Origin: Promethearchaeota archaeon
Lineage (GTDB): Archaea; Asgardarchaeota; Lokiarchaeia; Sigyniarchaeales; SOKP01
NCBI GenBank assembly: GCA_016839705.1
Contig: JAEOTR010000065.1
Coordinates: 1-62,952 of the forward strand
DNA: 62,952 nucleotides
Direction: 5' to 3'
Position numbers and translations under genes: made by a program. A model generated the notes under the pieces. The model searched no databases. It saw nothing but the letters and a program-made list of their open reading frames with translations, and was not told the origin of the DNA. Shown here piece after piece: positions 6,039 to 46,385 of the stretch. Each line of letters starts with the position of its first letter. Position 1 is the stretch's first letter.

Positions 6039-7475
6039 TTACTCTTCCGTTAAATAATCTATCGCGTTAATTGCGGATTCACATACGTAATCACATTTAT
6101 CGTGTATTAAATCATTTAAACGGGAAATAATTTCATCAGTCTTTACTCCAACAATACCTAATGCTTCACTTGCTCTCCACCTAACATCAGGATTTCTATC
6201 ATCTAATGCTCTAATTAAAGAATCTACTACGAAGTCTGAAGTAGAACCTAATTTTCCTAACGAGAGTGCTGCTGCTCTCCGTACAATATATTTAGGATCA
6301 GTTAGAGCATAAACTAATGCTGAAATGGCTTCCTGTGAGCCCATACCAATATTACCTAGTGCTCTTGTCGCTTCAACACGAATTGGGGCAGAAGAAGTTC
6401 CTAATAAAGCCGAAAACATCGACCTTATTCTTGATATGATCGATTTTGAATAGGTTTGATCTTTCCTTCTAAATTCTATTTCTTCACCTTTTAATCCAAG
6501 AATATTACTTAGATCTGTTATTGCGCCTTCAGCCTCTTTGCCAATTCTAGCGATTGCAGATATAATGATTTTTTGCATATCTTTCTTCGCACTTTTAAGA
6601 GCGTTTAGTAAACCAGGAACAGCATCTTTTCCAATATAGAACAGTGAATCTGCAGCTTTTCCACGTACCTTTTCCTTTTTATCCTTAAGCATTATTACTA
6701 ATTTTTCAATAATAATGGGATCAGGCTTCTTGATTTCTCCAAGAGCCTCAATAGCACCACTTCTAACAATTGGATTCTTATTATCCAATTCATTTAATAG
6801 GTTTGGAATTGCTGCTTCACCAATTTGTACTAGTGTATTCACAACCCGATAACGTACCCTCCAATCATTATCCTGAAGTGCAATTATTAAGGAGGGTATC
6901 GCTTTTGTAGTATCTTTACCAATTTTACTAATCGCTTGAGCTGATGCCGTTCTAACAGTCCAACTAATATCTTTAATACTTTTCATTAGGTCTGGAATCG
7001 CTTCATATGCATCTGATCCTAATTCACCTATAGCGATTACTGCTTCAGTTCTTACAATTTCACTTTTGTCTATTAAAGTATTTAACAATGCAGCAAGTGA
7101 CCCAGGGGATGGATTTCCGATTTTACCAAGAGCAATCGCTGCTTCTTTACGAATAGTTTCTTCTTCATTAGTTAATAATTCTGATAATCTTGATATTGCA
7201 TTCTCTGCTTTATTTCCTATTTTCCCTAATGCTCGTGCAGCTTCTCGAATAATACTCCAATCTTGATCATCCAAACAACTAATAAGTTTCGGGATGCCAT
7301 TTACAGATTTTTCTCCGAGTTCACCTAAAACACTAATAGAATTGAATTTAATAGATCTAATCTGATTCTCTAAGTGCCCAATTACCTCATTAATAATAGA
7401 GGGATCTTTTTCAATTCTGGATAATACTAAATCATTTCTAGCATCTCGCAACAATTTTTCTAATGGAGCTGACAT
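6039..7475 (-). CDS. HEAT-repeat (PBS lyase HEAT-like) protein
   Basis: About 12 repeats of L-x-D-x-x-x-x-VR-x-x-AA-x-ALG-x-IG; starts 11 nt after the livF stop. Confidence 0.9.
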   Translation of the reverse strand: MSAPLEKLLRDARNDLVLSRIEKDPSIINEVIGHLENQIRSIKFNSISVLGELGEKSVNGIPKLISCLDDQDWSIIREAARALGKIGNKAENAISRLSELLTNEEETIRKEAAIALGKIGNPSPGSLAALLNTLIDKSEIVRTEAVIAIGELGSDAYEAIPDLMKSIKDISWTVRTASAQAISKIGKDTTKAIPSLIIALQDNDWRVRYRVVNTLVQIGEAAIPNLLNELDNKNPIVRSGAIEALGEIKKPDPIIIEKLVIMLKDKKEKVRGKAADSLFYIGKDAVPGLLNALKSAKKDMQKIIISAIARIGKEAEGAITDLSNILGLKGEEIEFRRKDQTYSKSIISRIRSMFSALLGTSSAPIRVEATRALGNIGMGSQEAISALVYALTDPKYIVRRAAALSLGKLGSTSDFVVDSLIRALDDRNPDVRWRASEALGIVGVKTDEIISRLNDLIHDKCDYVCESAINAIDYLTEE

Positions 7476-11316: not shown

Positions 11317-12747
11317 TTATGATGTATAAATCAGCGGTGGTAAGGTTATTAATGTTTGGTTTAGCATAGCCCCAAAAGGTGGTACTGGTGAATAAGGATC
11401 GCTAGGATAAAGACCTGGTGCAGCTAAAAAGTTTTTCGCACCACTTATCCATTGAACGGCAAGACCGACAGCAAAAGGCCAACCATATACGGGACTATGA
11501 CTTGCATCATAAGCTAAAACACCGCCTGCACCTACAATACCCCCACTTGCTTGAGTTAAGGTTTCTAGTTGTGCTACATTTACATCTGGGTCGAGTGATG
11601 AAGAATGTTCAAGCATCCATTTAAATTGGTAAATTGTGTCATATGTTCCTGTAGCAGTATACACCGGATCAGTTCCATACTTCGCTACATACGCATTCCA
11701 AAATGCGAGTGTTTTTGCAGTCTTATTAGTTTCATACACACTATCTATTCCAATGCTGTAATTACACCTACCACCTGTGTCCGTCCAAAACTCTGATTCT
11801 TGAGCTACAACATTTATACCTATTGGGATACAGGTTTGACCCCCAGGGAGATCACCATATGAATTCGCAAAGGGTAATCCCGCAGTCCCAGAAATTATCG
11901 GGATTACTATAGAAGTATTTGCCGTTACAATTGTATTGAAATGAGCATCCATCTGAGTTGGGGTAACGTCTTGAGGAAATGCTACGTCTATCCCAGTATA
12001 GGTTAGGTTATAGACATCGTTATTTGTTAAATAATAAATCATTGCATCTCTGAAATCTTCGGTCCATGCTAAGGATTCTCTCATAAAAGAAAATCGAGAA
12101 ATGTTTTTGCCATAGAGCCCATTAGAAAGGGCTGCCTCAGTGATTATTAAACTGATTAAATTGTATGCTAGTGCAGTAGTATTTTGTGGGCTAATTTGAA
12201 AATAATATTTGGAAGTATTATAAGAATCTAGAACTTTTTGAGTTAAAGTAGTAGTCGCTGCTCCAGTATTTATGAAGATTATTTTTTCATCCAAAAATAG
12301 TTGTTGATATGCTAATGCGGTTTCAGTTCTAGATGAACCGGTTGCAAAATGAGGTTTTCTATAGTTAATTAGTTTTTTTGCCGCAGATACAGCCGTAGCT
12401 GTGTCTAGAATAGGATTGTTTTCATCTGAATCTTCCCACACAATACCAAAATAGTATGGATTACCCCCTCCGAAACTGATACCACCTGCTGTATTTATTT
12501 CCTCTGCGGCCATTAAAGCTGCGTCTCTCTGTCCTTTACCTACAGCTCGTGCCATATCACCAATTACTCCTATTTTAATTATTTGATCCTCTGTAATGTC
12601 AGTTGGTGCTCCAGGACAATCTGTAGCACTCCATTTATATTCTCCTGCTCCCGGCGTTAGTAAGAAAAACCATGCACCCAAACCGACGCCTACTGCAACA
12701 ACTGCAATAAGCACAATCGCTATTATTCTTTTTGTTGTTGATTCCAT
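11317..12747 (-). CDS. ABC transporter substrate-binding protein (LivK/LivJ family), N-terminally anchored
   Basis: N-terminal TM, IKIGVIG and AAEEINTAGGI; many N-x-S/T sequons; lies upstream of livHMGF. Confidence 0.88.
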   Translation of the reverse strand: MESTTKRIIAIVLIAVVAVGVGLGAWFFLLTPGAGEYKWSATDCPGAPTDITEDQIIKIGVIGDMARAVGKGQRDAALMAAEEINTAGGISFGGGNPYYFGIVWEDSDENNPILDTATAVSAAKKLINYRKPHFATGSSRTETALAYQQLFLDEKIIFINTGAATTTLTQKVLDSYNTSKYYFQISPQNTTALAYNLISLIITEAALSNGLYGKNISRFSFMRESLAWTEDFRDAMIYYLTNNDVYNLTYTGIDVAFPQDVTPTQMDAHFNTIVTANTSIVIPIISGTAGLPFANSYGDLPGGQTCIPIGINVVAQESEFWTDTGGRCNYSIGIDSVYETNKTAKTLAFWNAYVAKYGTDPVYTATGTYDTIYQFKWMLEHSSSLDPDVNVAQLETLTQASGGIVGAGGVLAYDASHSPVYGWPFAVGLAVQWISGAKNFLAAPGLYPSDPYSPVPPFGAMLNQTLITLPPLIYTS

Positions 12748-12967
12748 TTATTAGATCACTTTTTATTTTTTTTTTTAAAATTAAGATTGTCTAGTAATAG
12801 TGGATTTGAAGATATATATAAATTTTGCAACTTTTTGAAGTAAATCATAAATATTTACAACAATGAAAAAACCTGTCCAAAAAGAGTTAGTTCCAGAAAA
12901 AACCATAAGGAGCTTCTAAATGTCTTTTTATAGATTCTTAATAATCAACTACTCTTCCCAAATCCTC

Positions 12968-15900
12968 TTAGGTAGGAATAGTGGAGAGTTGTATAAAGAA
13001 TAAAACCCCAAATAGTATTAATAAAATAAAAAGTGAAAGGAGCGTATAAAATCTCCATTTAACTGAAATTTTCTCCCTTTCTTCTTTTCTTCCAAGAAAA
13101 ACTAATATTATTGTGCCAACAACAGCCGTGGATATTAAACCAGTAAAAAGATACCATTGAGGAGTTATTACGATAAACAATAATCCTAAAACACTACCCC
13201 AACCAATAGATAAGCGTAATATACGTCTTTTGAATATTATATCTGGATCCTCCGTTTGAGTATATGGAATAATTAAATAAAGTAAACCAAATATTGCCAG
13301 CATGAGTAGAGTAGTATGAATCCAATTCAAGTAATTGAGTGATATAGGGGATAAGAGAATCCCAAAAAATATCGCCAAACAAGCACTAATTATTGTCCAA
13401 ATTACTTTGAAATGAATTTTCAAAAAGTTGAAAATAGATTTAACGACACTAATTATTATTAATTTAATTTTTTTAAAGGCTCTAATAAGTAAATCGACAA
13501 ATTTATTGAAAAGTTCACGTAATTCTTCCAACAAGAATACAAAGGGATAAATAACAAACGTAATTGTCAATACCGTTACCCCTATCTCCCAGGATAATGA
13601 CAAATTATATATAATTGAGCTTAATAAAGAAAAAATCGCTGCCCAAAATACGAATGCAATAACAGAATGTTCCTTAAATGGTTTTATTATTATCCCCAAG
13701 AAAATTACGAATGTAAATAATGCAACACTTAGCTTTAAAAATAAACTGAGAGACGGAATAAAACCTAATGATATGTAAATATCGAAAGATAGTAGAGTTC
13801 CAATTGCTAAAAATGAGATTTTTCTAAGAATTCCCCTCGGTTTTTCATTAAATACACTTATATATTCGTCAATGTAAGTCAGAATAAATAAGATTCCTAT
13901 TGAAGCTAGTATCAGATTTAACGAATAAAATGGATTCAATGTCGCATTATAAACCGGCCAGGTTATAAAATCTAAGTACAAAATAATCAGAAGAATCCTT
14001 TTTATCTTCTCCTTATTTGAAATTACAATTTTTGAAAATCCTAACAGCTTAAAGAGGTATGCGGTTTCAATAATTAAGATTAAAATGATTAGAGGTATTG
14101 ATGTAGCCAGTAAAGCGAAGAAATTTATGAAGTATATCCAAATTAAATAGGTTGTCGTGAAAGCCATTATGAAAATCCATGAAAGTACTTTAAGATAATT
14201 AGAAACTTTTCCTAAAAATTTCAATATATACGAATCGATAATCATCAAAATGTGAACCAATAGGCTTAGAATTAAAAGCATTAATTGCTGTTCGATGCTG
14301 AATATTAATAAAGTTTGGAGTAAAAGGAGAAATAAACTAAAATAGAACCCTACTCCCAAAACCTTTGTGGAAAATCTTCTGCTTTTATTAATTTGTTCTT
14401 TCTTAGTTGGGTATAATTGACTCAAAGATGCAAAAAGAGAATAAATGGTATAAAATTGCATTAGAATAAATAACAAGATTTCCAAGCTCAGCAATATTTG
14501 GTATTGTATCGCTGCTGTGTTTAACATTAATAAAAACATTAATGAAATCACAAAGAAACTAAGGGTGTGGATTAATTGTGCATATCCCCTTTTAATTTTC
14601 TTGATTGAGTAAATATCTAATAAGGTTAATGCAAAAAATACTATCTGAGAAACTAAGATACTTTCAATAATCCCTACAAATACGATCATCAAGCCATAAA
14701 ACAGTAAACTCGTTTCAAAATATAACAGAATTATTAGTAATGAAAACACTCGTGTCAAGAATTCCGGCTTTTTTCCTTCAAAAAAGAGTGAATTAACATA
14801 TTTAAAAGTTTTAAAGCTAAAGCATGTCTCTATCAAGATAATTAAAATTGTTGAGAAAATATTCAAAATATTGAACAAACCGAAGATAATTATCATATTG
14901 GTAGCAAACAAACTTTGAAAAACTAATAAAAGTACAATTTCAACTGAAGATTTCAACTTTACATCAATTTTCATGAGAAAATTACTTAAGATAAATATAA
15001 TTAGAAAAGAATTTTGGAACAACAATAGGTAGTATGCAAAACTCCTTAGTTCCTCAATAAGTATAATTATCCCATTAGAGATTATTGATCCTACAAAAAA
15101 TGAACCCGATATAAAGAGAACATAATAAAGGATTAACCGTCCATTAGAGATTATTCTTTTTGAAATATCTAAGTGAGAGAGAAGACTGAGAGAAATCTGA
15201 TTTATAAGTGCAAATATAGATAATAATAGAAATATATTTGAGTGATACATAAATAAGAACAAGGATAGAGTGTTAATGAAAAATGAAAAAGACCAAAAAG
15301 TAAATTTATTCCTTTTTGAATGGAATAAATAATATAAAAATCTCCTGTCTATTATGTATGATTCAAAAAATATGATACCACTAAAGATAAGTATAAGTAC
15401 ATAAATAATACTCGTAATATTCACGTTTACATAAAGCATAAAGAGTAGAATATTAATGCTTAAGGCTGTAGGTATCAATAAAAATATAACAAAACAGATT
15501 TTATTGAAATAAAGAAGGGGGTCTCTTATTTTGAAATGAATATCTGCTTTTTCGATATATTTTAAACTCAATAAGATAAAAACTGACCAGATTATTAGAA
15601 AATCAAGAAATTGATAAATAAAAATGATGTGACTGAATAAAAATTGATCTTGAAAAACAGGGATAAGAATTGATATTAATAACGAGAAAAATAGGGAAAA
15701 AAGAATAAAACTTGTGAAATTTACAAGTTTAATTTGATTTTTATCTTTAAAAATTTTAAACATACTATTTTTCTTTTCTGTAGAATCCCTCTCCTTATAG
15801 TTTTTAAATAAGTTAAATATAATCTGAAAGACAGCTACATATATTATTGAAAAGCCCAGAAATGCTAAAAACCAGATGGATCTAAGTACTTCAATTAACA

Positions 15901-18900
15901 TTAATAATTCAAATAGAGGGAGTACTAAAGGTATTGGAATCAAAGACCAAAGGAAATATCTATAATCTACAAGTATAAAATAGAGAAAAGGTAAAAAGAT
16001 TACTGTGAATGTACTAATTAAAATATAAGGTGATGCCCTCAAGAAAACAAAAACCAGTGATGTTATAGAAGAAGATGTGCCAATTGCTACAATAAAAAGT
16101 GGGATTATTCGATTTATACGAAATTTCAACTTATATTTATTAAATATAAAGTAAGAACATCCAAAGACCGTTAATGCGAAAAAGAAAGCAAACAATACTA
16201 ATTGTGGATGCAAACTACTAAATGTATTGAAAGTTAACCATGCGAAATTGAATATCAATATCCAAGAAAGACTTATCTCAATTATTCTATGCGATAGCTT
16301 TATATATTTTGATGAAAAGAGACTAAACCCTACTACCATTAAACTTAGATTAACGGAGAAAATAAAATTTTGAATAATGGAATAAATAATGAAATAAACT
16401 GTGCTAAAAATACCACCAAGGACAATAGAATAACTGATAGTCAAAATGATGCCAATTGATCTAACATTTGGAAAAAAGGAATATATAATCATTAATAATC
16501 CAATTACCAAGATATCAATTGAAATCGTTACCTCTAATGGTATTCCTATAGAAACTAAATAATAGCCCAAAAACAAAGTATTGATCACTATAAGCATTAC
16601 CCAAAAAACAGATACAATCTTCCAATACTTCAAACCAATTAATATGGGCATTAATAAAAGGACGGCAAATAGGACGAATAAAAGGTTTATTAATCCTAAA
16701 TTACCCAAAAATAGATTTTGGCTAATCCAATACAACAAGAATAAGCTTTCTCCCCAAACGATAAAGACTAGTTTTAGGAAATATTTCTTTATTTTTGTAT
16801 AGATAACGGGTAAGAAAAATAAGGAGCAAATGATAATAGACATAATTGTTGAGCCTGTAAACTCAATATCTCCGAAAAGGCTTAATGAGTTAGTAAGGAC
16901 ATCAACCCCACTTAAACTTTTATATATTATTATAAAATTAACGAAAGGTAAAATATTCCACGCATACCAACCAGATTTCCAAATTGCCCAAGAAATTCTC
17001 CATTGATAAATTCCAATAGAAAGATAGAAAAGAAAAACACCCACGTTAATACTGAATATTATCGGAATGGGATCTGTAAAAGGGATTGAAAATGAAGTAA
17101 CTATGAAGAAGTACAAAAAGGTGGGTATACATAATATTATTGCGAGTAAAACAAAATAAAACGATTTCTTTCTAAAATTTGCAGGAGCTTTATTAAATAA
17201 AAATACAAAAACGAATCCTGTTATACCTAATGTAAGAGTAAAGGTAAGTAGTGGGTTGAGCCCGGTGTAAGGGGGATGATTAAAGAACAAAAAATATGAA
17301 ATAAAGCTTATTAAATCAAAAACTGCTAGTAAAACGCAAGGTTTAATAAACCACTTATACAGTACATTTTTCTGTCTGTAAAAGTAAATTCCCATGAAAA
17401 ATAAAAATAAAAAGACCGATATTGTTAAGTTGTAGATTAAAAGAACTATGGTATATGAAAAAAATAATACGAAAGATAGAAGAGAGAGAGTTGCATATAA
17501 TGCAAACTTCTCATGAATGTTATTTCTTTTATAATTTAACCATATTGAAAAAAGTAAAACAATTGATAAGCATATTAAATAGTTTTGGCTATAAAATGTG
17601 ATTAAATTTAAATCAAATGCATTTAGATAAATAAATCCGCCGAAAGGAACTGCTGTGATCGCTATAAACAATACATATCCTAAAAGGAGATATGCTAGAA
17701 ATCTAAAGATATTAATTATACTACGTCGTGATAAAATAAGAATTAACAAAATTAAAGAAAAAATAGGGATTGTAATATACATAAAAAATTGGCTTATTAG
17801 CAATAAAATGGATGAAAAATAAAACTTGAACAATCGAGGAAACGTATATGATTCTAGTATCGAATTGTATCGCAAAATACAGAAATAAAGAAATAGATAT
17901 AGGTTAGCGATGATAACTGTTAAAGGAATTAAGTTAAAAAGATTGAATGAAGGAATATTCCATGTTAAAATATTGAATATCTCCAAATAGAGGCTTAAAT
18001 TTGAGAGGATAAATATACCAAGAAATACTTTATTTATGAAGAATTGAGTTTCTCCCGAAATTATTTTTAGATTTATGAAATATTTTAGTGTAACAGGAGT
18101 CAAAATTGATAGAATTAATATAAATATGATTATTTGAACTAAAATTGAAAGAGGAAATGCAAGAGATATGAAAAGACAGAAAAAAATCTTAAAAGAAAAC
18201 CATGAAATCAATTCCAAACAATTCTTTAGGATTTCAAATGCTGGTTCTATAACTTTTGACTTAATAAGCAATAGGCTAAATAAGAAAAAGAGTCCAAAAG
18301 ACCACGTAAAATTTAAAGAAGCCAGTCCTAAAGGAAGGAAATATAAAATATTCGTGATTTGAATCAGAGTTACTAAAAGATAGGAAAACGAAAAAACAAT
18401 GCCATATAGTATAATATCTTTTATATACTTACTGATTTTCAGTTCCTTAGAATAATTAGACATTAACCTTAAAGTATAGATGTTTAACATGAAGAAGACA
18501 AAAAAAGTTATGCTAAATGATAATTGATTTATTAGATATGGAAAGATCCAAAAAGCTGTAAAAAGTGAAAAAGAAAACCAAGAAAATGCTTCAAGTAACT
18601 TTAGATGTTTTATTATTTTTTCTAATATTTTAAATTTAATACAAACGAAATCTAAGAATTTTAAAATTGCAAACAGTAGAATTAAAGTTATTGCTATAAT
18701 TATGAGAAAATCAATCATTAGCCCAAAATTTGAAAGTTCTAATCCTACTATAGTTGGGATTAATATAATAATTCCAGACAGAAGTAGGCTATTGACAAAT
18801 ATGCTGTTTTTAACAAGATTTACATTAAAAAGTTGTTTTTTATAAGAAAATAAAGTCGGGAGATAGAAGAAACATGATGCTGCAATGAAAGGAATAAGAA

Positions 18901-21900
18901 ATCTGTACATCGTTCCCAATAGAAGAATAAAAACGTAATAGAATACTGTCGTTCCAGTTAAAAGTATCTCAATTAAAACTTGAGATTTTAATATTACTAG
19001 CTGATATTTATCCCTCATCCTATAATGCTTTACTAAATAATAAATAATGATTAAAAGGCCAAACGCGATATAAAATGTGAAATTTAAAACCGAGATAACG
19101 TCAATCCTTATACCGAAACGAAACAATAAATCCAAACTAATAATGCTAGGTATCATTGTTAGAAAAATGGCTATTAGGATGCCGTCTGAAACTAAAATCT
19201 TGTGGGTTACATTCTCATATTTCTTCATTCTTAAAAGGTAATAAATTGGAAAAATTAAAACCGAGAAAAAGCATAAAAACGGAATCAAAAATACGTAGAA
19301 TGTATTAAGTGTGTATAAAAAAGAATAATAGAAAGCTAACCCCGCACTAAATATTAAGGTAGTTAAATTGATTTTAATACTCGTTGATATAGAAAAGATG
19401 AATTCCTTTTTAGAAAGCAGGATACCTATAATAGACAAAATTAAAAGCGAAAAATAAATAGAAAACAAAAAATTATCATAAAAGGCTAAGCTAACTAATA
19501 TTATAGAGTAAAAGAAGGAGAAAAACAGTGTAAAGAGTTCTGCTGTCATTATATAGGAATTGATACTGATAAATCCCTTTAGTGTAGAATCTTTTACTTT
19601 TCTTAATTTCACCCCAAACTTCATATTTAATTGTATAAAAATGGAAAAAAATAAGAAATCTAATGCCAAAATTACAAAATTACTCGGAAATGAAATAAAA
19701 ATAGCAATAAGGATGTCGATAAATAATAACCAAAGTATATAATAATTTATTAGTAAAAATTGCTTTCGAGTAAGTACTCTCAATAAATGATTTATAGATA
19801 CAAAGAAAATTAACACAGAGGGAAAAATTAGTATTGTATAGCTTATTACTGGGAAAACATTAACACTCAACCCTAATCGGTAGATCTCTATATTAAAAAT
19901 TATTGGGACTAACGTAATAGAAATAGCTAAAAGTACAAAATTAACCAACAAGAGTTTTTGCATAACTTTCTCGTAAAATTTCTTTCTAAATAGGTAATAA
20001 ATCGGGAAAAATAAAATTGAGAACAAACTTAAAAAAGGTATTAAGAAAACATAAAATGTACCCAAAGAGTATAGTATTGAATAATAAAATGCCACGCCTG
20101 CACTAAGTAATAAGAATGTTATGTTAATCTTAAAAACCATTGATTTTGAAAATAATATATTACTCCTCGAAAGAATATTAATCAAAAAAGTAAATAGTAG
20201 TAAGGAAAAATAAGATGATAAGATTAATTTATCAGAGAATACTAGATTTACAAGTATGAAAGAATATAATGAAAAGAAAAATATTACTAAGAACTCAAAG
20301 GTCAATATATATGAATTTATTTTAGTATAACGCTCAAATGAAGAATTCTTTACTTTTTCTAACTTCAATCCAAACTTCAAATTAATTTGACTAAAGATTG
20401 ATAAAAATAAGAAATCTAAAGTTAACATAACTGTATTATCCAGAAAGACAAAAAACATAACTAGAAATAAATCTACTATTAAAATCCATAAAAAGAAATA
20501 GGTTGAAATCGCGAAATTTTTCCGAGAAAGTATACCTAATAGATAATTAGCAAATATAAAAAATATAAAAATTACGGGAAACAGTAAACTTGATACTAAT
20601 AATAGTCTTATCGCAGTGATACCCGCAAAAATGGAATAAATTCTTAAATTAACTAGTATAAAGATTAGGAGCTCGATGAGGAAGATGTGGATAATCACAC
20701 TGATTCTGAAAAGTTTTGATCGTTTTACTGAAAATATTCTAGCATTTAATATGTAAAAAGATACTAAAGAAACAATTGAAATTAATAATCCATGTAGTAA
20801 AATGTTAGATATGAAAATTATTACTGGATTTGAACTAAATAATACTAATTCAAATATAATTAGGTTTTCAAATGTTGTAAATCCAAATAGCGAATAGGTT
20901 ATAATGGTAAAACTCGCTATAGCCAGTAAATTTTGGATAATAATGATATTTTCCTTTACGAAATACTTAACTTTCACAAGTATTTGAAGGCTAAAATAAA
21001 GAGATATCAAAAATATTATAAATTGGATGTTTAAGGAAAAGACGCTTGAAAAGAGCCCAAAGGAAATTGCTATTAAAAGACTTGTAGATATTAACAAGTA
21101 AATATATTTATTATATTTTTTCGGGCACATTTTGGCTTTCTGTTCATAATAGGCAAAAATAAAGAAAAATGGTAAAATTACTAATACAATCCACTGAATT
21201 TTTATAAGAAAACAAAAAAATGTTATAGATCCAATTAAAACTCCTGATAAAATAGTATTATATTTTTGATATTTGATACCCTGAGAGGGTGTCTCTTCTT
21301 CAGGTTTATTACTCTTCGTGGGAGAATCTTTATAGACAGTAAGTAGGGAATTATAATAATAGTTAATATAAAATAATGTTTTGAAGTAGATCAATACAAA
21401 AATAATACTTAAGAACGAACCATTCATCAATTCTAAGGTTGTATATTGAATGCCTGAAAGACTCATAATAACAAAGGGCATTTGAATTAAGAGGATGAAA
21501 ATCAAGCTTGTAATTGATAAAACAAACCTTTGCTTAAATTTTGTTAAATCTTCAAGGATAGGTTTATTTTCCTTAATAGAATCGTTAATCTCACGAGAAA
21601 CTTTTCGGGTTATTATAAAAGTGATGAGATAAAAAAGAACACTAGTTATTAAAGCAAAAAGCCAAGAGAAGTCTGTGAAAAAAGTAAGTGAAAGGAAAAT
21701 AAGGTGAGCAATGTAATTGATGAAAATGATCAAATTGTATGGTTGTTTTACTAGTTGTTGAAAGTTTGCAGCATGTTTGAATTCTCCTTTTTCCTTATTA
21801 AAAAAACCAATAGGCTGGAAACGATAATAATAATATACTATATTATAAAGAACTGTAAAACTTATTACGGGGAGTAGTGTAAATGAATCTGCAGGTGAAA

Positions 21901-22240
21901 TCAATATAAAAATTGGAGTAACTATTAGTGCCAGGATAGTTATTAAATAAAGGATGTGAATCCGAGCAGTCAGGTTATTTCTTTTATTTAGAAAAAAAGG
22001 TTTATTTCTGTACTTATCAAATGCTTTATAGAAAAAAAGCAAAGCAAACATATACGTAATTACTGTAAAAGATAATTCAATATAAAAACCCTGTCTGAAA
22101 AAACTATAAATCCAATAACCTGCAAAAGCTGTTGTTAAAGGAGCTATAACCATAAAAAAACTAAACCACCAGACTTTCTGGAGAAAATCTGTAGCTTTTT
22201 GAAGACTCTCTTCCGAACTTTTGTTATCTTTGGATTTCAT
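12968..22240 (-). CDS. Giant polytopic membrane protein of unknown function (3090 aa)
   Basis: Uninterrupted 9.27-kb ORF with ATG start after AGGTAGAG. Hydrophobic ~20-aa helices alternate with short Lys-rich loops along almost the whole length. Confidence 0.9.
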   Translation of the reverse strand: MKSKDNKSSEESLQKATDFLQKVWWFSFFMVIAPLTTAFAGYWIYSFFRQGFYIELSFTVITYMFALLFFYKAFDKYRNKPFFLNKRNNLTARIHILYLITILALIVTPIFILISPADSFTLLPVISFTVLYNIVYYYYRFQPIGFFNKEKGEFKHAANFQQLVKQPYNLIIFINYIAHLIFLSLTFFTDFSWLFALITSVLFYLITFIITRKVSREINDSIKENKPILEDLTKFKQRFVLSITSLIFILLIQMPFVIMSLSGIQYTTLELMNGSFLSIIFVLIYFKTLFYINYYYNSLLTVYKDSPTKSNKPEEETPSQGIKYQKYNTILSGVLIGSITFFCFLIKIQWIVLVILPFFFIFAYYEQKAKMCPKKYNKYIYLLISTSLLIAISFGLFSSVFSLNIQFIIFLISLYFSLQILVKVKYFVKENIIIIQNLLAIASFTIITYSLFGFTTFENLIIFELVLFSSNPVIIFISNILLHGLLISIVSLVSFYILNARIFSVKRSKLFRISVIIHIFLIELLIFILVNLRIYSIFAGITAIRLLLVSSLLFPVIFIFFIFANYLLGILSRKNFAISTYFFLWILIVDLFLVMFFVFLDNTVMLTLDFLFLSIFSQINLKFGLKLEKVKNSSFERYTKINSYILTFEFLVIFFFSLYSFILVNLVFSDKLILSSYFSLLLFTFLINILSRSNILFSKSMVFKINITFLLLSAGVAFYYSILYSLGTFYVFLIPFLSLFSILFFPIYYLFRKKFYEKVMQKLLLVNFVLLAISITLVPIIFNIEIYRLGLSVNVFPVISYTILIFPSVLIFFVSINHLLRVLTRKQFLLINYYILWLLFIDILIAIFISFPSNFVILALDFLFFSIFIQLNMKFGVKLRKVKDSTLKGFISINSYIMTAELFTLFFSFFYSIILVSLAFYDNFLFSIYFSLLILSIIGILLSKKEFIFSISTSIKINLTTLIFSAGLAFYYSFLYTLNTFYVFLIPFLCFFSVLIFPIYYLLRMKKYENVTHKILVSDGILIAIFLTMIPSIISLDLLFRFGIRIDVISVLNFTFYIAFGLLIIIYYLVKHYRMRDKYQLVILKSQVLIEILLTGTTVFYYVFILLLGTMYRFLIPFIAASCFFYLPTLFSYKKQLFNVNLVKNSIFVNSLLLSGIIILIPTIVGLELSNFGLMIDFLIIIAITLILLFAILKFLDFVCIKFKILEKIIKHLKLLEAFSWFSFSLFTAFWIFPYLINQLSFSITFFVFFMLNIYTLRLMSNYSKELKISKYIKDIILYGIVFSFSYLLVTLIQITNILYFLPLGLASLNFTWSFGLFFLFSLLLIKSKVIEPAFEILKNCLELISWFSFKIFFCLFISLAFPLSILVQIIIFILILSILTPVTLKYFINLKIISGETQFFINKVFLGIFILSNLSLYLEIFNILTWNIPSFNLFNLIPLTVIIANLYLFLYFCILRYNSILESYTFPRLFKFYFSSILLLISQFFMYITIPIFSLILLILILSRRSIINIFRFLAYLLLGYVLFIAITAVPFGGFIYLNAFDLNLITFYSQNYLICLSIVLLFSIWLNYKRNNIHEKFALYATLSLLSFVLFFSYTIVLLIYNLTISVFLFLFFMGIYFYRQKNVLYKWFIKPCVLLAVFDLISFISYFLFFNHPPYTGLNPLLTFTLTLGITGFVFVFLFNKAPANFRKKSFYFVLLAIILCIPTFLYFFIVTSFSIPFTDPIPIIFSINVGVFLFYLSIGIYQWRISWAIWKSGWYAWNILPFVNFIIIYKSLSGVDVLTNSLSLFGDIEFTGSTIMSIIICSLFFLPVIYTKIKKYFLKLVFIVWGESLFLLYWISQNLFLGNLGLINLLFVLFAVLLLMPILIGLKYWKIVSVFWVMLIVINTLFLGYYLVSIGIPLEVTISIDILVIGLLMIIYSFFPNVRSIGIILTISYSIVLGGIFSTVYFIIYSIIQNFIFSVNLSLMVVGFSLFSSKYIKLSHRIIEISLSWILIFNFAWLTFNTFSSLHPQLVLFAFFFALTVFGCSYFIFNKYKLKFRINRIIPLFIVAIGTSSSITSLVFVFLRASPYILISTFTVIFLPFLYFILVDYRYFLWSLIPIPLVLPLFELLMLIEVLRSIWFLAFLGFSIIYVAVFQIIFNLFKNYKERDSTEKKNSMFKIFKDKNQIKLVNFTSFILFSLFFSLLISILIPVFQDQFLFSHIIFIYQFLDFLIIWSVFILLSLKYIEKADIHFKIRDPLLYFNKICFVIFLLIPTALSINILLFMLYVNVNITSIIYVLILIFSGIIFFESYIIDRRFLYYLFHSKRNKFTFWSFSFFINTLSLFLFMYHSNIFLLLSIFALINQISLSLLSHLDISKRIISNGRLILYYVLFISGSFFVGSIISNGIIILIEELRSFAYYLLLFQNSFLIIFILSNFLMKIDVKLKSSVEIVLLLVFQSLFATNMIIIFGLFNILNIFSTILIILIETCFSFKTFKYVNSLFFEGKKPEFLTRVFSLLIILLYFETSLLFYGLMIVFVGIIESILVSQIVFFALTLLDIYSIKKIKRGYAQLIHTLSFFVISLMFLLMLNTAAIQYQILLSLEILLFILMQFYTIYSLFASLSQLYPTKKEQINKSRRFSTKVLGVGFYFSLFLLLLQTLLIFSIEQQLMLLILSLLVHILMIIDSYILKFLGKVSNYLKVLSWIFIMAFTTTYLIWIYFINFFALLATSIPLIILILIIETAYLFKLLGFSKIVISNKEKIKRILLIILYLDFITWPVYNATLNPFYSLNLILASIGILFILTYIDEYISVFNEKPRGILRKISFLAIGTLLSFDIYISLGFIPSLSLFLKLSVALFTFVIFLGIIIKPFKEHSVIAFVFWAAIFSLLSSIIYNLSLSWEIGVTVLTITFVIYPFVFLLEELRELFNKFVDLLIRAFKKIKLIIISVVKSIFNFLKIHFKVIWTIISACLAIFFGILLSPISLNYLNWIHTTLLMLAIFGLLYLIIPYTQTEDPDIIFKRRILRLSIGWGSVLGLLFIVITPQWYLFTGLISTAVVGTIILVFLGRKEEREKISVKWRFYTLLSLFILLILFGVLFFIQLSTIPT
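19080..20590 (-). repeat. Intragenic tandem duplication, period 756 nt (252 aa)
   Basis: LDFLFLSIF..LKFGLKLEKVK..INSYI..SAGVAFYYS..TFYVFLIPFL recurs as LDFLFFSIF..MKFGVKLRKVK..INSYI..SAGLAFYYS..TFYVFLIPFL. The matching gcact lies at 20100 and 19344. Boundaries are approximate. Confidence 0.85.
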
Positions 22241-37159: not shown

Positions 37160-39583
37160 CTAAAGTCCGTGTTCCGTTCGAGCTATTATGCTATCTTGAA
37201 CCATTTTATCCAAATCAACAAAACGGGCGTTGTAGCCTGCTACCTTGACCACAAGATCCTTAAACTTTTCAGGTTCTTTTTGTGCTGCTATTAATGTCTT
37301 TGCAGACACGACGTTAATCTGAACATGATCAACCTTTTGATCTACAAATACTCTGATAAGGTCTGCCAACCTTTTGATACCATCCTCTTTTTCAAATACG
37401 ACTGGATCAAGTTTCATGTTTAGAGTTTGGCCTAGCGAAAGTTCTGGATTGTTAATCTTACCCATGGACTTGAGAACCGCAGTAGGACCATTTATATCAC
37501 TACCTATTGTAGGAGATGCTCCATCAGAGATGGGTGCCCGGCTTTTTCTTCCTGAGGGTAGTGCTCCCACCATTAGACCTTGAGGTACATAAGATGACAT
37601 TGGTACTTGATAAGCGTATTTCGTACCACCGTATGTTGTTTTATATTTCATTGCTTCTGTTGCGACAAGGTGGCTTACCCAGGCAACTTGTTCATCTGCA
37701 TAATCATCATCATTACCGAATTTCGGAGCGTCTAAGCACATTTTATGGATATCTTCATATCTTTTAAAATCATTGTCAAGTGCATCACATAACTCTGCCA
37801 TCGTAATTTTTTTATCGTCAAACACTACTTTCTTAATAGCTGCTAGTGAATTACCTGCATCGACAGTTCCAGATGAAGAAACTGCACCCAAACTGTAGCG
37901 TGCTCCACCTTCCTCTCTACAAATTCCATTTTCAATACAGTCTTCAGTTAAAGCTGATGTGAAAGGAGTTGGTTGAAGTAATTGTTCACCAAGGTTAGCA
38001 GAGATTGCACCCCTTTTCATCTCAAAAGCTACTTGTGAACGAAATGCTTCTCTTACCTCTTCAAATGATTTAAATTGCCTTGCATCACCAGTTTCTACCC
38101 CCCTTCTTTTACCGAAAATTCTACTCCAGCCATTAGTCATCACAAGTTCCATTAAAAGCGCAAGATGTTGCGTTTGATTTACTTCCCATCCACTTTCCAT
38201 CGTATGTATACTGGGTTCATGGCAACCAACACAACCACCAAATTCTCTGGCCATCTCTAAAGAAACAGGACGCCCTCCAATGGTAGATCCGCGACCAAGT
38301 AGATTATCAACCAGAACATCATGATTGACATATTGAGGGTTACCACTACCCACCGAAGTCAATTGGCATGCTTTTATTAATATATCATCGGGTGTTTTAC
38401 TATGCACTAAAAGACCGATTGCAGGTTCTACCATCCCTGGAGTGTGCATTATAGCTTCGATAAACATGTAGGAAAGTGCATTTGTTGCATCTGTTCCATC
38501 AGCTTTTTGACCACCAATATCAAGATGATGACCAGGTGTATATTGTGAAATAACTCCAAATTTGGTCCAAAGACCAAACGATTGTGAAAACCGCATACAC
38601 CAGCAATCAATCAATTCCTGGGCTTCCTCCTTTGTTATTCTTCCTTCTCTTATATCCTTCTCATAGAAAGGATACAGATATTGATCGGCTCTTCCCAGAC
38701 TTATTCCCCCATGAAATCCTATCTCCCAACCGAGTAGCATATGAGTGAACCAGACTGACTGCAGCGCTTCGTAGAAAGTTCTTGCTGGATGTGCTGGTAC
38801 TCTTTCGCATATTTCCGCAATTTTAAGGAGTTCATCTTTTCTCTGATCATCCTGTTCCTCCTCTGCAAGTGATCTAGCCTTAGAAGCAAATCTCTCCCCA
38901 ATCTCAGCAGCGGCATCTAATGCTAGAATAACTCCCTCAAGGAAAGGAACTTTCTGAATATCTTCTGCATCTATTAGGTTTATTCTCTCCAATCTTTCTT
39001 CGGCATCACGCTTTATTCCTAAAAATCCTTTTTTCAAGACTTTTGGATAGTTAACAACATAGTGACAAACTTTCAATGACTCATAAGCATACTCTACTCC
39101 CATTTTTCTTGCTTCTGGAGGAACAATTGCGGGATGATAATGTTTTCTCCAATATGGATAAATTTCCTCCCTTAGAATTTTCTTATCTTCCTCATCAATA
39201 AGAAAGGGATCACTTTTCCTAGTACTCAGAGTATCTAATTCACTCTCGAGCCCAAATGCAGTCCATGTAATTGCATTAAAAGGAATTTCAGTACCCCGCG
39301 GCTCAGAAAATAACCATCCCACGAAAAACTCATCGGGATAAATATTTACTGGCACTCCTCTCACGATTGCGGCAAATGATTTAGCTCTTCTGGTAATAAA
39401 CAGTTCTCCTTCAGTTTCTTTTCTACTCTGGGTTCGGATTCGTGCAATATCAATAACTACCTTATTCTTAGTGTTCAAGTATCGCTGTCTTAGAGTTTCA
39501 ACCCTTGATGTTGATTTTATAGTTCTATATTTTTCCCATAAAGACGGTTCTGCAACACTTGATTCATTTACGGACTCTACCAA
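37160..39583 (-). CDS. Glycyl radical enzyme (PFL2/eliminase-like, substrate unknown)
   Basis: SLGRADQYLYPFY, Cys loop GCVGCHEP, PKFGNDDDYAD and Gly loop LVVKVAGYNARF; TTG start. Confidence 0.92.
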   Translation of the reverse strand: MVESVNESSVAEPSLWEKYRTIKSTSRVETLRQRYLNTKNKVVIDIARIRTQSRKETEGELFITRRAKSFAAIVRGVPVNIYPDEFFVGWLFSEPRGTEIPFNAITWTAFGLESELDTLSTRKSDPFLIDEEDKKILREEIYPYWRKHYHPAIVPPEARKMGVEYAYESLKVCHYVVNYPKVLKKGFLGIKRDAEERLERINLIDAEDIQKVPFLEGVILALDAAAEIGERFASKARSLAEEEQDDQRKDELLKIAEICERVPAHPARTFYEALQSVWFTHMLLGWEIGFHGGISLGRADQYLYPFYEKDIREGRITKEEAQELIDCWCMRFSQSFGLWTKFGVISQYTPGHHLDIGGQKADGTDATNALSYMFIEAIMHTPGMVEPAIGLLVHSKTPDDILIKACQLTSVGSGNPQYVNHDVLVDNLLGRGSTIGGRPVSLEMAREFGGCVGCHEPSIHTMESGWEVNQTQHLALLMELVMTNGWSRIFGKRRGVETGDARQFKSFEEVREAFRSQVAFEMKRGAISANLGEQLLQPTPFTSALTEDCIENGICREEGGARYSLGAVSSSGTVDAGNSLAAIKKVVFDDKKITMAELCDALDNDFKRYEDIHKMCLDAPKFGNDDDYADEQVAWVSHLVATEAMKYKTTYGGTKYAYQVPMSSYVPQGLMVGALPSGRKSRAPISDGASPTIGSDINGPTAVLKSMGKINNPELSLGQTLNMKLDPVVFEKEDGIKRLADLIRVFVDQKVDHVQINVVSAKTLIAAQKEPEKFKDLVVKVAGYNARFVDLDKMVQDSIIARTEHGL

Positions 39584-42392: not shown

Positions 42393-45300
42393 TTGCCTAG
42401 TTCGAGGAAAGGGAAAAAAAAGAAAGACGATAATAAAAGTCAAACTTCAATATTTTCTTTTGCAGATGAGAAAGAAAAGGAGAAAAAAGTCTCTGCCGAG
42501 AAGGACGAAAATAAGGAAAAATTAGAGCAAAGTAGAGAAAAATTAGAGGAAAAACCACCTATTAAAGAAGAAGAAATCGAAAAATCAGCTATTAAAGAAC
42601 AAGAACCCGAAAAATCCCCTATAACTGAAAAAAAAGTAACCAAAAAAGCATCTCAATTAACATTCTTTACTAAAAATGATAAACCATTTGGATTAAAAGT
42701 GGGGAATATAAAATTAGATAAGGTTTTCAGAGAAGGGGTAACCTCAAAATATATTAGATATCTAATTAAACAAGGGGAAATAGTTCAAAATTTAGAAAAA
42801 GGATTATTACTTGATGTTGATTATGATGGTGGGTTAAATAAGGCTTTCTGTAAATTCTATGATTTAGCGACAGACGAAATAAAGATTTGGATAGATACTA
42901 CAGAGCATGAACCTTATTGTCTAAGTAATGAACAAATAGGAGAATTAGAAAAATTATATTTTTCAGAAAAAATCGGTCAAGCGACACAAAAGAAGAAATT
43001 AACTGATTACGCTGGTTTTAAACGATTTGAGAAAGTTAAGAAGTTTAATTTGTTAAGAGATAAAGAAATTGAGATGACTAAACTTTATGGTGAAACTCCT
43101 ACAAATATTGGGGGATCGGGTACGAATATTCGTAATATTTTGGGTGAAAATGACAAAAAAGCATGGGAAGCAGATATACGGTATCACTTGAACTATATCT
43201 TTGATACTCAATTAATTCCTGGTTTAATTTATACTATAAAAGACGGTAATTTAGAAGAATTAAATTATGAGAAGATTGATGAAGATTCAAAAATAATGGC
43301 TAGTGAGCTTCGAGATCTATTCAAGAGTGAATCTCCAGAAATCCAAGAGTTTTCTGAGAAATTCTTAGATATTTTTATTACTCCTATTCCTGATGTTAAA
43401 CGTATGGCAATGGATATTGAAGTTAAAGTAGGTAAAGATGATTATAGAATCCCTGATCCTCATCTTGCTAAACAAGAGGTTATCAGTATATCTTTTGTGG
43501 TTACTGATGGATTAAAACTGGTTTACATGTTAGAACGTGAGGAATATTCCATTAAAGAATTTCATGAAGATTTTCCTTCAGATGCTAAAGTTGTTTTGTT
43601 TAAATCTGAAAAAGACTTGATGACAGAAACATTTCGGCTTATGTGGAAATACCCTATAATCATCACCTTTAATGGAGATAACTTTGATCTTAATTATTTA
43701 TATCATCGGGCTGAAAAGCTAAAAGTAAACAAAGATCTTAATCCAATCCATGTAAAACGAGGATTTGGGATTATGTCAAAAGCAGAATGTGATTTAAGAC
43801 ACGGCATTCATATTGATGTATTTAATTTATTCTTTAATAGGAGTATTTCTGGATATGCTTTTGGAGGTGTGTATGAGAGTGCATCACTAAATGCGATTAG
43901 TGCTGCCTTATTAGGCGAAGAAAAATTTCAGCATGATGAGATAATTCATGAAATGGAATTTGATATTCTTTCATGGTATAATCTTAAAGACTCATTATTA
44001 ACACTGGAACTAACTAAATTTAACAACTCCTTAGTATGGAATTTAATTATATTGTTGTGCCGGATAACGAAGATGCCGATTCATGACATGGTTCGAAGGC
44101 AAATCTCAACTTGGATCCAGAATATTTTTTATTTTGAACACCGAAGAAAAAACTATCTAATCCCGAGGCGCTCAGAAATATCTGAATTCAAAAAAGGCGG
44201 GAAATTAATGTCCAGAGCTAATGATGAGAAATTCCAAGGGGCCTATGTTATCCAACCTGTTCCTGGAATTCATTTTGATGTTGTAGTTATGGATTTCGCA
44301 TCACTGTATCCCTCTATTATTAAAGAATACAATCTTTCATATGAAACTGTTTTATGCCCTCATAAAGATGATGAAGATAATCTTGTAAAAGGAACACCTT
44401 ATCATATTTGTACCCATAAAATGGGGATCTTTGCTTATGTAGTAGGATTTTTCCGGGATATTAGAGTAAAATACTTCAAACCAAAGTCCGGTGATAAAGA
44501 ATTAACAGAAAAACAACGCAACTATTATCAGACTATTCAACAGGCATTAAAAGTGTTTATTAATGGGTCCTACGGTGTATTTGGGAGTCAAAATTTTCCA
44601 TTGTTTTGTCTACCTGTAGCAGAAAGCACAACAGGTATTGGACAATATTCTATCAAACAAACTATCAAAAAAGCTGAGGAATTAGGTGTAGAAGTTTTAT
44701 ATGGAGATAGCGTTACTGGAGATACGCCCTTATTGCTTAGAAGAAATAACACTATTACAATTAAAAGGATTGATGAAATAGGTTCAGAATGGATTAATGC
44801 TGGCGATAAAGAAATAGCCTTTTCTGAATTTGAAGTATGGGGAGAAAAAGGATTTAATAAAATCAATAAAGTTATAAGACATAAAACAAAAAAGAAACTA
44901 TTTAGAATTCTAACACATATAGGAGTTGTCGATGTAACTGAAGACCATAGCCTTTTAACCAAAAATAAGGAAATGATAAAACCTGGACAAGTTAAAATAG
45001 GAACCGAATTGTTACATGCGTTTCCAAAAGAATATAGTGAAAATTTCAATTCAGATCTCTCTAAAGATGAAGCATTTGTATTTGGTTTATTTTATGCTGA
45101 TGGTTCAGCAGGAATATATGATACTAAATGGGGTTATAAATACTCCTGGGCAATAAACAATCAAGATAGAGAATTATTAACAAGAAGTCTAGAAATTCTC
45201 AATCAAATTGAAGCAAAAAATGGATTAGAATTTAAAATTATTGACACTATTGAATCTTCAGCAGTTTACAAATTAATACCTACAGGCGGGTTAAAAGAAA

Positions 45301-46385
45301 TAACCGAAAGATATAGGTCACTTTTTTATAATAAAAACAGTCAAAAAATAATACCAGATATGATTCTAAATGCCCCTTTTGAGATCAAGAAATCATTTTT
45401 CGAAGGATATTATTCTGGAGATGGAGATAAATGGGGACGAAATAAATTCGGGAACACACGACTTTCCAATAAAGGAAAAGTAGGTACAATGGGATTTTAT
45501 TATCTATTATCTGCTTTAGGTTATAAAGTAAGTATTAATTCAAGATTGGATAAACTGAATGTGTATCGATTAAATGCCACAAAATCATATCAAAGAAAAA
45601 ACCCAAATGCTATTAAAAAGATTATTCCTCTTGGAATATCTAAAGATTTTGTATTTGATTTAGAAACAGAAAGTCATCATTTTCACGCAGGTATTGGACA
45701 GATGATTATCCACAATACAGACTCAGTTTTTCTTAAAAATCCCAATAAAGATCAAATGAAAGAAATATCAAATTGGAGTAAAAAAGAATTAGATCTTGAT
45801 TTAGAAGAGGAAAAGACTTACCAATTTTTGGCATTATCAGATCGAAAAAAGAATTATATTGGAATATATAAGAATACAAAATACACAGATGTAAAAGGAT
45901 TAGTGGCCAAAAAGAAAAACACTCCAGAATTTATTAAAAAAGCCTTTAGTGAAATGATTGAACTATTGAAAAAAATTACAAATAATGAAGACTTCTTGAA
46001 GGCAAAAGATGAAATCATAGAGATCGTGAGAGATAATTTAAGGAAAATAGGGAAACCGAATACATTTGTATTAGGAGACTATGCTATAAATATTGGGTTA
46101 CAAAAAGATCTGAAAAACTATACTAAAACTATTCCCCAACACGTTAGGGCTGCTAAGGAATTAAGAGATGTGACAGGAAGAAACTTTCAAAAAGGTGAGA
46201 CAATCAGCTTTATTAAAAGTAAGGGAGCAAGCGGGGCAAAAGCAATTGAATTGGCTAAACTCCAAGATATAGATACCAAAAAATACAAGGAGTTATTAAA
46301 ATCTGCATTTGAACAAGTCTTGGATGCCCTTGGTATAACTTTTGATGAAATTCGAGGTATAAAAAAGTTGGATGCGTTTTTTTAA
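42393..46385 (+). CDS. polB1: Family B DNA polymerase, PolB1 type, intein-containing
   Basis: LLDVDYDG and WEADIRYH; exonuclease motifs DIE, FNGDNFD and YNLKD; polymerase motifs DFASLYPSII, KVFINGSYG and YGD|TDS; C-terminal KKLDAFF. Confidence 0.95.
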   Translation: MPSSRKGKKKKDDNKSQTSIFSFADEKEKEKKVSAEKDENKEKLEQSREKLEEKPPIKEEEIEKSAIKEQEPEKSPITEKKVTKKASQLTFFTKNDKPFGLKVGNIKLDKVFREGVTSKYIRYLIKQGEIVQNLEKGLLLDVDYDGGLNKAFCKFYDLATDEIKIWIDTTEHEPYCLSNEQIGELEKLYFSEKIGQATQKKKLTDYAGFKRFEKVKKFNLLRDKEIEMTKLYGETPTNIGGSGTNIRNILGENDKKAWEADIRYHLNYIFDTQLIPGLIYTIKDGNLEELNYEKIDEDSKIMASELRDLFKSESPEIQEFSEKFLDIFITPIPDVKRMAMDIEVKVGKDDYRIPDPHLAKQEVISISFVVTDGLKLVYMLEREEYSIKEFHEDFPSDAKVVLFKSEKDLMTETFRLMWKYPIIITFNGDNFDLNYLYHRAEKLKVNKDLNPIHVKRGFGIMSKAECDLRHGIHIDVFNLFFNRSISGYAFGGVYESASLNAISAALLGEEKFQHDEIIHEMEFDILSWYNLKDSLLTLELTKFNNSLVWNLIILLCRITKMPIHDMVRRQISTWIQNIFYFEHRRKNYLIPRRSEISEFKKGGKLMSRANDEKFQGAYVIQPVPGIHFDVVVMDFASLYPSIIKEYNLSYETVLCPHKDDEDNLVKGTPYHICTHKMGIFAYVVGFFRDIRVKYFKPKSGDKELTEKQRNYYQTIQQALKVFINGSYGVFGSQNFPLFCLPVAESTTGIGQYSIKQTIKKAEELGVEVLYGDSVTGDTPLLLRRNNTITIKRIDEIGSEWINAGDKEIAFSEFEVWGEKGFNKINKVIRHKTKKKLFRILTHIGVVDVTEDHSLLTKNKEMIKPGQVKIGTELLHAFPKEYSENFNSDLSKDEAFVFGLFYADGSAGIYDTKWGYKYSWAINNQDRELLTRSLEILNQIEAKNGLEFKIIDTIESSAVYKLIPTGGLKEITERYRSLFYNKNSQKIIPDMILNAPFEIKKSFFEGYYSGDGDKWGRNKFGNTRLSNKGKVGTMGFYYLLSALGYKVSINSRLDKLNVYRLNATKSYQRKNPNAIKKIIPLGISKDFVFDLETESHHFHAGIGQMIIHNTDSVFLKNPNKDQMKEISNWSKKELDLDLEEEKTYQFLALSDRKKNYIGIYKNTKYTDVKGLVAKKKNTPEFIKKAFSEMIELLKKITNNEDFLKAKDEIIEIVRDNLRKIGKPNTFVLGDYAINIGLQKDLKNYTKTIPQHVRAAKELRDVTGRNFQKGETISFIKSKGASGAKAIELAKLQDIDTKKYKELLKSAFEQVLDALGITFDEIRGIKKLDAFF
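44709..45716 (+). mobile_element. Intein with LAGLIDADG homing endonuclease (336 aa) at the YGD|TDS (pol-c) site
   Basis: Begins SVTGDTP; block B VTEDHSL; LAGLIDADG helices FGLFYADG and FEGYYSGDG; ends HN with +1 Thr. Confidence 0.95.

Follow-up and report, generated by a model that had tools for sequence, protein, structure and literature searches.

Giant membrane proteins and helical-repeat arrays

Piezo1 and Piezo2 contain 38 transmembrane (TM) helices per chain, with nine 4-TM units in each blade. Piezo1 assembles as a curved trimer that owes its sensitivity to tension to its transmembrane arms, while an extracellular cap and a cytoplasmic C-terminal domain are required for the Piezo pore (10.1101/2025.10.24.684433). 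Single chains with up to 331 predicted TM helices are found among the giant proteins of Omnitrophota (10.64898/2026.06.07.730766), in which TM helices make up about 2% of the residues; the chain with 331 helices has one for every 370 aa or so. Helical hairpins in series are also the basis of the alpha-solenoids of the TPR, HAT and HEAT type, which are soluble proteins that grow by tandem duplication and tolerate changes in length.

The window analysed here, a stretch of 62,952 nucleotides from a Promethearchaeota archaeon (contig JAEOTR010000065.1 of assembly GCA_016839705.1), encodes a protein that can be compared with each of these systems. With about 97 TM helices, one per 32 aa, and almost nothing besides, its chain lies far outside the characterised range represented by Piezo. 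It shares with Piezo a very high TM number, 4-TM repeat units and a long helix on the cytoplasmic side near the C-terminal module, but it has more than twice as many helices (up to about 140 in relatives), two arms flanking a central hub, and neither an extracellular cap, nor a cytoplasmic C-terminal domain, nor a sequence match to Piezo. As the cap and C-terminal domains are missing, the protein is not a member of the Piezo family. In common with TPR, HAT and HEAT proteins it has hairpins in series, growth by tandem duplication and tolerance of length, but it lies within the bilayer.

An intact gene under purifying selection

The gene occupies positions 12968..22240 on the reverse strand as an intact ORF of 3,090 aa, with an ATG start and zero N bases, exactly where a sequence-only reading of the window had placed an intact 9.3-kb frame. 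Leu, Ile, Phe and Val account for 52% of the residues and the GRAVY is 1.15. The GC content of the gene is 0.27, as opposed to 0.31-0.40 for the neighbours, but its fourfold-site GC (0.236) is the same as that of the neighbouring genes, so that the low GC is due to the amino-acid composition. Full-length homologues are colinear across 100% of the length at 46-74% identity. With the closest full-length relative as reference, dN is 0.09-0.16 and dS 0.60-0.89, dN/dS being lowest in the hub (about 0.10) and 0.18 in the arms. The gene is real and conserved, with native codon use, and it has been vertically retained under purifying selection. Horizontal transfer was rejected in view of the neighbour-like fourfold-site GC and of the hub tree, which groups members by lineage, its deep branches being only partly resolved.

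The AT-richness of the gene speaks for an artefact, either a chimera of the assembly or an AT-rich frame that is open but has no function; nonetheless, this explanation is already refuted and its probability is negligible. Colinear full-length homologues occur in assemblies made independently as well as in the complete genomes of cultured organisms, dN is far below dS, fourfold sites resemble those of the neighbours, and the topology signal described below is far above that of shuffled chains. The check for a chimera was likewise negative, the homologues being colinear over their full length and the internal duplicate copies sharing just 62% nucleotide identity.

Topology and searches for known families and folds

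Kyte-Doolittle scans give 81-96 hydrophobic segments, while segmentation with a family-averaged insertion scale gives 99-100. Three of the latter were discounted: an outer segment (aa 460-477), the surplus from the artificial cutting of a single helix (535-573) and an amphipathic stretch (2918-2940). This leaves about 97 TM helices. The same rule finds 104-115 segments in residue-shuffled chains; the raw TM count is thus uninformative on its own and was rejected as evidence. The distribution of basic residues is different from that of shuffled chains: only 12 Lys and Arg residues fall in helix cores, as opposed to 59-91 in 30 shuffles, and the loop-to-loop correlation of Lys and Arg is -0.65, compared with values from -0.20 to +0.25 in shuffles. 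Lys/Arg periodicity peaks at 63, 127, 192 and 252 residues, and a strict positive-inside alternation runs along the whole chain, as it does in all ten homologues tested. The protein therefore has about 97 TM helices (48 hairpins plus one), with the N-terminus in, the C-terminus out, and basic and neutral loops in strict alternation. The longest inner loop measures about 40 aa and the longest outer loop about 27 aa, and since no loop is long enough, the protein has no soluble domain. The sequence-only reading had estimated 80-90 helices; the very large number stands, with the count slightly higher. Its description of helices alternating end to end with short Lys/Arg-rich loops agrees with the loop correlation and the scarcity of charges in the cores, and its failure to see a soluble domain, ATPase or enzyme motif is matched by the short loops and by zero Pfam matches. 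AlphaFold2 models of aa 1575-2050 and aa 2390-3090 are confident and all-helical (pLDDT 87 and 89, pTM 0.66 and 0.65), with 16 and 22 long helices, the same numbers as predicted by segmentation.

A search of the whole protein against Pfam at E up to 1 returned no family, and neither the query nor the homologue from Promethearchaeum syntrophicum nor a Helarchaeota member matched anything in NCBIfam, with the first two also giving nothing in Pfam. The hub and C-terminal profiles had no sequence match in the PDB, and in searches of the literature neither the family nor its locus tags nor transmembrane solenoids brought up anything relevant. The proposal of an undescribed family is in keeping with these searches, by which the protein appears to belong to no described family and its architecture to have no described counterpart. 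Comparison with known folds had been suggested at the outset as a check. In Foldseek searches of both models against the PDB and viral models there was no match at E up to 0.001. The top rows were TPR/HAT proteins, which were non-significant (E above 0.1, rmsd 15-40 A) and resemble the protein in local hairpins only. In a wide VIA-align search the hub reached a best Z of 9.8, the matches being pieces of three helices, among them complex I ND4L and MrpF. For the arm 2 unit the best Z was 11.0, somewhat ahead of all other matches, to chain 9uav_B of the HRD1-SEL1L-XTP3B complex (rmsd 3.8, 114 residues aligned, 4% identity), a value that over four helices is within the range of the tool for a common helical-bundle arrangement. 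The likeness to HRD1 (SYVN1) is limited to these four helices at 4% identity, and HRD1, unlike the giant protein, carries a RING in its chain; in the giant chain there is no CxxC and no RING match in Pfam. Piezo was not among the 50 matches listed by VIA-align, which leave unlisted families possible, and a 4-TM period is present in the giant protein. A second look with VIA gave a best Z of 7.9, the Atlas structure search a best TM value of 0.36, and the Atlas feature searches weak leads. Among the leads was DUF2339, of the bacterial many-helix membrane proteins, with a language-model score of 0.82 and PF10101 in 13% of cluster members, but with no Pfam match.

Conserved modules

Conservation along the chain peaks at the N-terminus, in the hub (aa 1600-1950) and, more weakly, at the C-terminus. 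From its N-terminus the chain runs through an 8-helix N-module, a variable arm, the conserved hub and another variable arm, and it ends in a 59-residue helix followed by a 5-helix C-module. The N-module (21311..22240, reverse strand; aa 1-310) has 8 TM helices and, on the cytoplasmic side, conserved polar motifs. In one related genus it is a separate adjacent gene of 312-313 aa (L092:1012-1950, L093:946-1887, L094:981-1922, L095:959-1900). In three of the genomes its overlap with the main gene is 11-14 nt, and in the fourth it lies 22 nt upstream; the module is thus kept without having to be covalently linked to the rest of the chain. In three members (P0082, P0083 and P0084) a zinc ribbon is inserted in the second inner loop of the N-module, at about aa 138-230.

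The central hub (16091..17518, reverse strand; aa 1575-2050) comprises 16 TM helices, and its main part is still recognisable in Helarchaeota. Its invariant columns are mostly Trp and Pro, plus Phe and one Asn. Asp, Glu, His, Cys and Ser are invariant in none of the hub columns, an observation that speaks against an enzyme. The hub model contains one broken helix and a short outer beta-hairpin, and a Trp cluster (16958..17008, reverse strand; aa 1745-1761) marks the cytoplasmic start of the broken helix.

Beyond the second arm, a continuous helix of 59 residues (13415..13591, reverse strand; aa 2884-2942, residues 495-553 of the model) is modelled as one TM helix extending into a cytoplasmic amphipathic helix, and it sets off the final module. 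From aa 2904 the hydrophobic moment of the amphipathic helix is 0.73, the maximum of the chain (mean 0.19, sd 0.11). The C-terminal 5-TM module (12971..13411, reverse strand; aa 2944-3090) carries in its last cytoplasmic loop an S-x-x-W-R motif found family-wide. This loop is 13 aa long, and the chain ends 4 aa past the last helix; the model of this part has neither a cap between the last two helices nor a cytoplasmic C-terminal domain of the Piezo kind. A basic motif lies at aa 3051-3065 and, together with the Trp cluster and the amphipathic helix, makes up the three islands that had been picked out by eye, all of which are real. Many helices contain conserved buried Asn, Gln, Glu or Asp, with conserved mid-membrane examples being E523, D1642, N1768, E2471, E2509, E2526 and D2820. 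A complex prediction of hub plus C-module gave no answer (score 0.00) and weighs neither way.

Growth of the arms by duplication

Arm 1 contains a tandem duplication of a 252-aa, 8-TM unit that was missed in the sequence-only reading. Its copies (19913..20668, aa 525-776, and 19076..19912, aa 777-1055, both on the reverse strand) share 47% protein and 62% nucleotide identity, and a third copy of the 4-TM half unit follows at 18656..18976 (reverse strand; aa 1089-1195). The repeat unit of arm 2 (14291..15043, reverse strand; about aa 2400-2650) is made of 2 x 4 TM and occurs in up to four copies in relatives, which expand either arm by tandem duplication. In full-length homologues the duplication periods cluster at 120-139, 170-189, 240-269 and 360-389 aa, so that periods of about 125, 180, 250 and 375 aa correspond to 2, 3, 4 or 6 hairpins. 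As judged from these repeats, the arms grow by 4-, 6- or 8-helix duplications; since the periods are multiples of one hairpin, helices are always gained in even numbers, which preserves the topology.

In profile comparisons, adjacent units of the same arm match each other (probability 81 and 96), so that tandem homologous hairpin units are found inside each arm, while the units of arm 1 show weak homology to those of arm 2 (0.3-39). Family members have 998-2,072 residues before the hub and 893-2,534 after it, and the two lengths are loosely correlated (rho 0.42, with related members counted and kin non-independent). Since the arm lengths are unmatched, an SMC-like folding back of the arms on each other is unlikely. 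The duplicated units, the periods in multiples of a hairpin and the 63-residue Lys/Arg period uphold the earlier idea of a repeat-built array in the membrane, and the architecture is very probably a membrane-embedded helical-repeat array.

Distribution in Asgard archaea

Of 153 other genomes searched from the window's own Lokiarchaeia order, 114 contain the gene according to the hub profile (99/134, 12/14, 1/1 and 2/4 by family). It is usually single-copy in this order, as it is in the window's own genome. In one family of another Lokiarchaeia order the hub was present in one of three genomes. Several apparent absences are contig breaks, as the C-terminal profile finds fragments there. One genus is mostly without the gene (present in 1/10 genomes searched), near-complete genomes included, and its absence from some near-complete genomes suggests that it is probably dispensable there. 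In 239 genomes outside the class the hub profile gave nothing convincing, and the gene was not found in other Asgard classes; four short weak hub matches (E 1.5e-5 to 8e-3) and one weak match of the C-terminal profile were not accepted as homologues.

A protein search retrieved 88 family members of 1,700-3,750 aa, several of them colinear over the full length, and lengths across the family range overall from 2,500 to 4,905 aa. An exhaustive profile search of 1.84 billion representatives gave 58 matches, of which the named ones are Asgard; none is a clearly bacterial relative, two short weak matches being unplaced. That the window comes from an Asgard archaeon, as had been supposed, fits with relatives named Promethearchaeota. 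A distant branch is formed by Helarchaeota proteins of 2,549-2,608 aa, in which only the hub is recognisable and a trace of the C-terminal motif is left. Throughout an entire Asgard order, and as far as Helarchaeota, the gene has thus been maintained under purifying selection, mostly as a single copy. Three records titled Thorarchaeota, Hermodarchaeota and Odinarchaeota (L053, L065 and L077) hold close members (62-69%) and appear to be genomes from the window's own genus, and these labels look unreliable. In genome G038 the protein is broken in arm 2 into two consecutive frames of 2,065 and about 800 aa (L031:5328-11525 and 11547-13937), by either a natural split or a sequence error.

Cultured or enriched organisms also carry the gene, so that it can be studied in culture. 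The homologues are DSAG12_00898 of P. syntrophicum (QEE15075.1; 3,940 aa), NEF87_002906 (3,146 aa) and NEF87_003094 (4,905 aa) in Ca. Lokiarchaeum ossiferum, which has two copies, and K9W44_04180 of Ca. Harpocratesius repetitus (4,296 aa). All are labelled hypothetical and match the hub profile at E 1e-68 to 1e-84. Compared with the window protein, they have colinear ends and the same loop alternation, while the arms are unalignable. The segmentation rule yields 123-147 segments for the three longest of them, compared with 100 for the window protein. As for expression, in an RNA run containing the P. syntrophicum homologue one 49.6-kb contig spans the region, with DNA carry-over indistinguishable from transcription, and DSAG12_00898 has an RPKM of 152 within a flat background of 109-375 over 116 genes (PMC7015854, Supplementary Table 3). 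The L. ossiferum supplement has no entry for NEF87_002906 or NEF87_003094.

Gene neighbourhood

The gene is flanked in the nearest genus by a GH4/aminotransferase block on one side and, on the other, by a branched-chain-type ABC transporter operon. It lies just upstream of this operon with a gap of 150-250 bp, an arrangement absent in other families, which have other neighbours. A functional link to the ABC operon or the GH4 gene was rejected, the arrangement being genus-level synteny. Comparison of neighbour clusters revealed no partner gene conserved across the order or the family. The initial impression that the gene stands alone thus holds for the lineage of the window, but not for Helarchaeota, whose members lie directly behind a gene for a membrane-anchored RING protein. 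Each of the three Helarchaeota-type loci whose contig extends upstream has a RING-H2 gene, or its end, directly before the giant gene on the same strand. Its product is a membrane protein with two helices, a zinc ribbon and a C-terminal RING-H2 (L048:6822-7721 and L047:6970-7857, strand as the giant gene), separated from the giant gene by 6 bp in L048 and 143 bp in L047; in the third locus, of genome G338, only the RING tail is on the contig, at its edge (L045:8704-8790). In three loci of the genus Promethearchaeum (L024:942-3142, also L029 and L030), the giant gene is preceded, 270-299 bp away on the same strand, by genes for a 301-aa membrane protein with no clear Pfam match and a flotillin (SPFH). 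The RING-H2 and flotillin neighbours are lineage-limited leads. At one Helarchaeota locus (L047:15877-18094), and not at another, two small-GTPase genes (one Rag/Arf-like, one a longin-like and Ras fusion) follow the giant gene.

Possible functions

The best-supported reading of the function, though a tentative one, is a non-catalytic scaffold, fence or curvature element in the membrane. The chain consists of about 48 two-helix hairpins of about 63 aa, each with a short neutral outer turn and a longer basic inner loop, very probably packed in series within the bilayer, and would work without catalysis as a structural element. The arms may act as spacers that tolerate differences of more than 1,000 residues in length, rather than changes in sequence, while the Trp-rich cytoplasmic face of the hub and the C-terminal W-R motif may bind lipid or protein partners, and the long amphipathic helix may serve as a lever between the second arm and the C-module. 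At an estimated 1 nm per hairpin, 48 hairpins could fence, stiffen or bend a membrane patch of tens of nanometres. Consistent with this scaffold, there is no ATPase or soluble domain and no order-wide partner gene. On the other hand, the buried polar residues and the broken hub helix are equally expected of a channel or transporter, the gene is probably dispensable in the genus where some near-complete genomes lack it, and the family was not found in other Asgard classes, while complex cell shapes are not known to be restricted to Lokiarchaeia. The sole link to protrusions is presence in cultured species that form them.

Other readings draw on the same features. The repeat arms might work as tension or curvature levers which, through the amphipathic helix, gate a pore that oligomerised hubs or C-modules would form. 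The 4-TM period recalls the Piezo blades, the terminal module is conserved and set off from the array by the 59-residue helix, the hub combines buried polar residues with a broken helix, and in the curved Piezo1 trimer it is the arms that confer sensitivity to tension (10.1101/2025.10.24.684433). Such a Piezo-like mechanism is unlikely, however, as with no outer loop above about 27 aa and a chain ending 4 residues past its last helix there is neither cap nor C-terminal domain, the strongest conservation is central, flanked by the two arms, rather than at a terminal pore, and no Piezo Pfam model is matched. The array could also curl into a lipid-filled groove or a thinned patch through which lipids, lipid-linked glycans or other large hydrophobic molecules would pass, which would make it a passive conduit or a flippase. 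Scrambling needs no energy-coupling domain, nearly the whole protein is inside the bilayer, conserved Asn, Gln, Glu and Asp lie within the helices, and the hub has invariant Trp residues; but known flippases and scramblases need 10-14 helices, the freely varying arm length would be unexplained, and genes for lipid or glycan synthesis are absent from the conserved neighbours, which makes a conduit quite unlikely.

An ERAD-like ubiquitin platform, in which the array would hold or extract membrane proteins to be marked by a membrane-anchored RING E3 ligase, is suggested by the RING-H2 gene at the three Helarchaeota-type loci, by the zinc ribbon in an inner loop of three Lokiarchaeia members and by the HRD1-complex chain as top structural row for the arm 2 unit. 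Yet it is improbable, because the three loci are close kin (proteins 57-67% identical) in genomes with 10-12 RING matches each, the RING gene is absent from recurring neighbour clusters in the other loci clustered, and the structural score is within the common-bundle range. Improbable, too, is a multi-module secondary transporter or membrane enzyme grown by fusion and duplication, with the repeats as degenerate units: modules can be separate genes and the nearest genus has the gene just upstream of the ABC operon, but no part matches any transporter or enzyme family by sequence, there is no invariant catalytic residue, and the operon link is inherited gene order absent in other families. In Pfam and NCBIfam, no signature of ABC, MFS, RND or other classified transporters and no nucleotide-binding domain was found.

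Beyond the scaffold in its general form, the protein might represent a new class, an adjustable-length single-chain array of 80-140 TM helices around a central hub that shapes, fences or senses the membrane independently of Piezo, for example at the necks or constrictions of Lokiarchaeia protrusions; this is speculative and rather unlikely. Cryo-tomography of L. ossiferum has revealed densities that are not assigned to any protein at the necks of protrusions, as well as assemblies where curvature is high (PMC9834061), and as this organism carries two copies of the gene, the candidate is testable there. The family raises the questions of how the translocon inserts some 50 hairpins in register and of what role a membrane-embedded repeat array of variable length may have. 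The analysis adds a parity-based TM count, the even-helix duplication rule, the natural split of the N-module, and the Helarchaeota branch with its RING neighbour.

Other observations

Apart from the giant gene, a further very hydrophobic frame lies on contig C15 of genome G000 (starting near 30179, forward strand), with 873 aa from stop to stop and a GRAVY of 0.95; by tblastn it is unrelated to the giant protein. In the window, 6039-7475 (reverse strand) encodes a HEAT/PBS-lyase repeat protein between ABC ATPase genes and an acyl-CoA synthetase gene, starting 11 bp after the last ATPase gene. A pyruvate-formate-lyase-like glycyl radical enzyme of 807 aa is encoded at 37160-39583 (reverse strand), and a family B DNA polymerase of 1,330 aa at 42393-46385 (forward strand) contains a LAGLIDADG-like domain at about aa 1000-1060, probably an intein.
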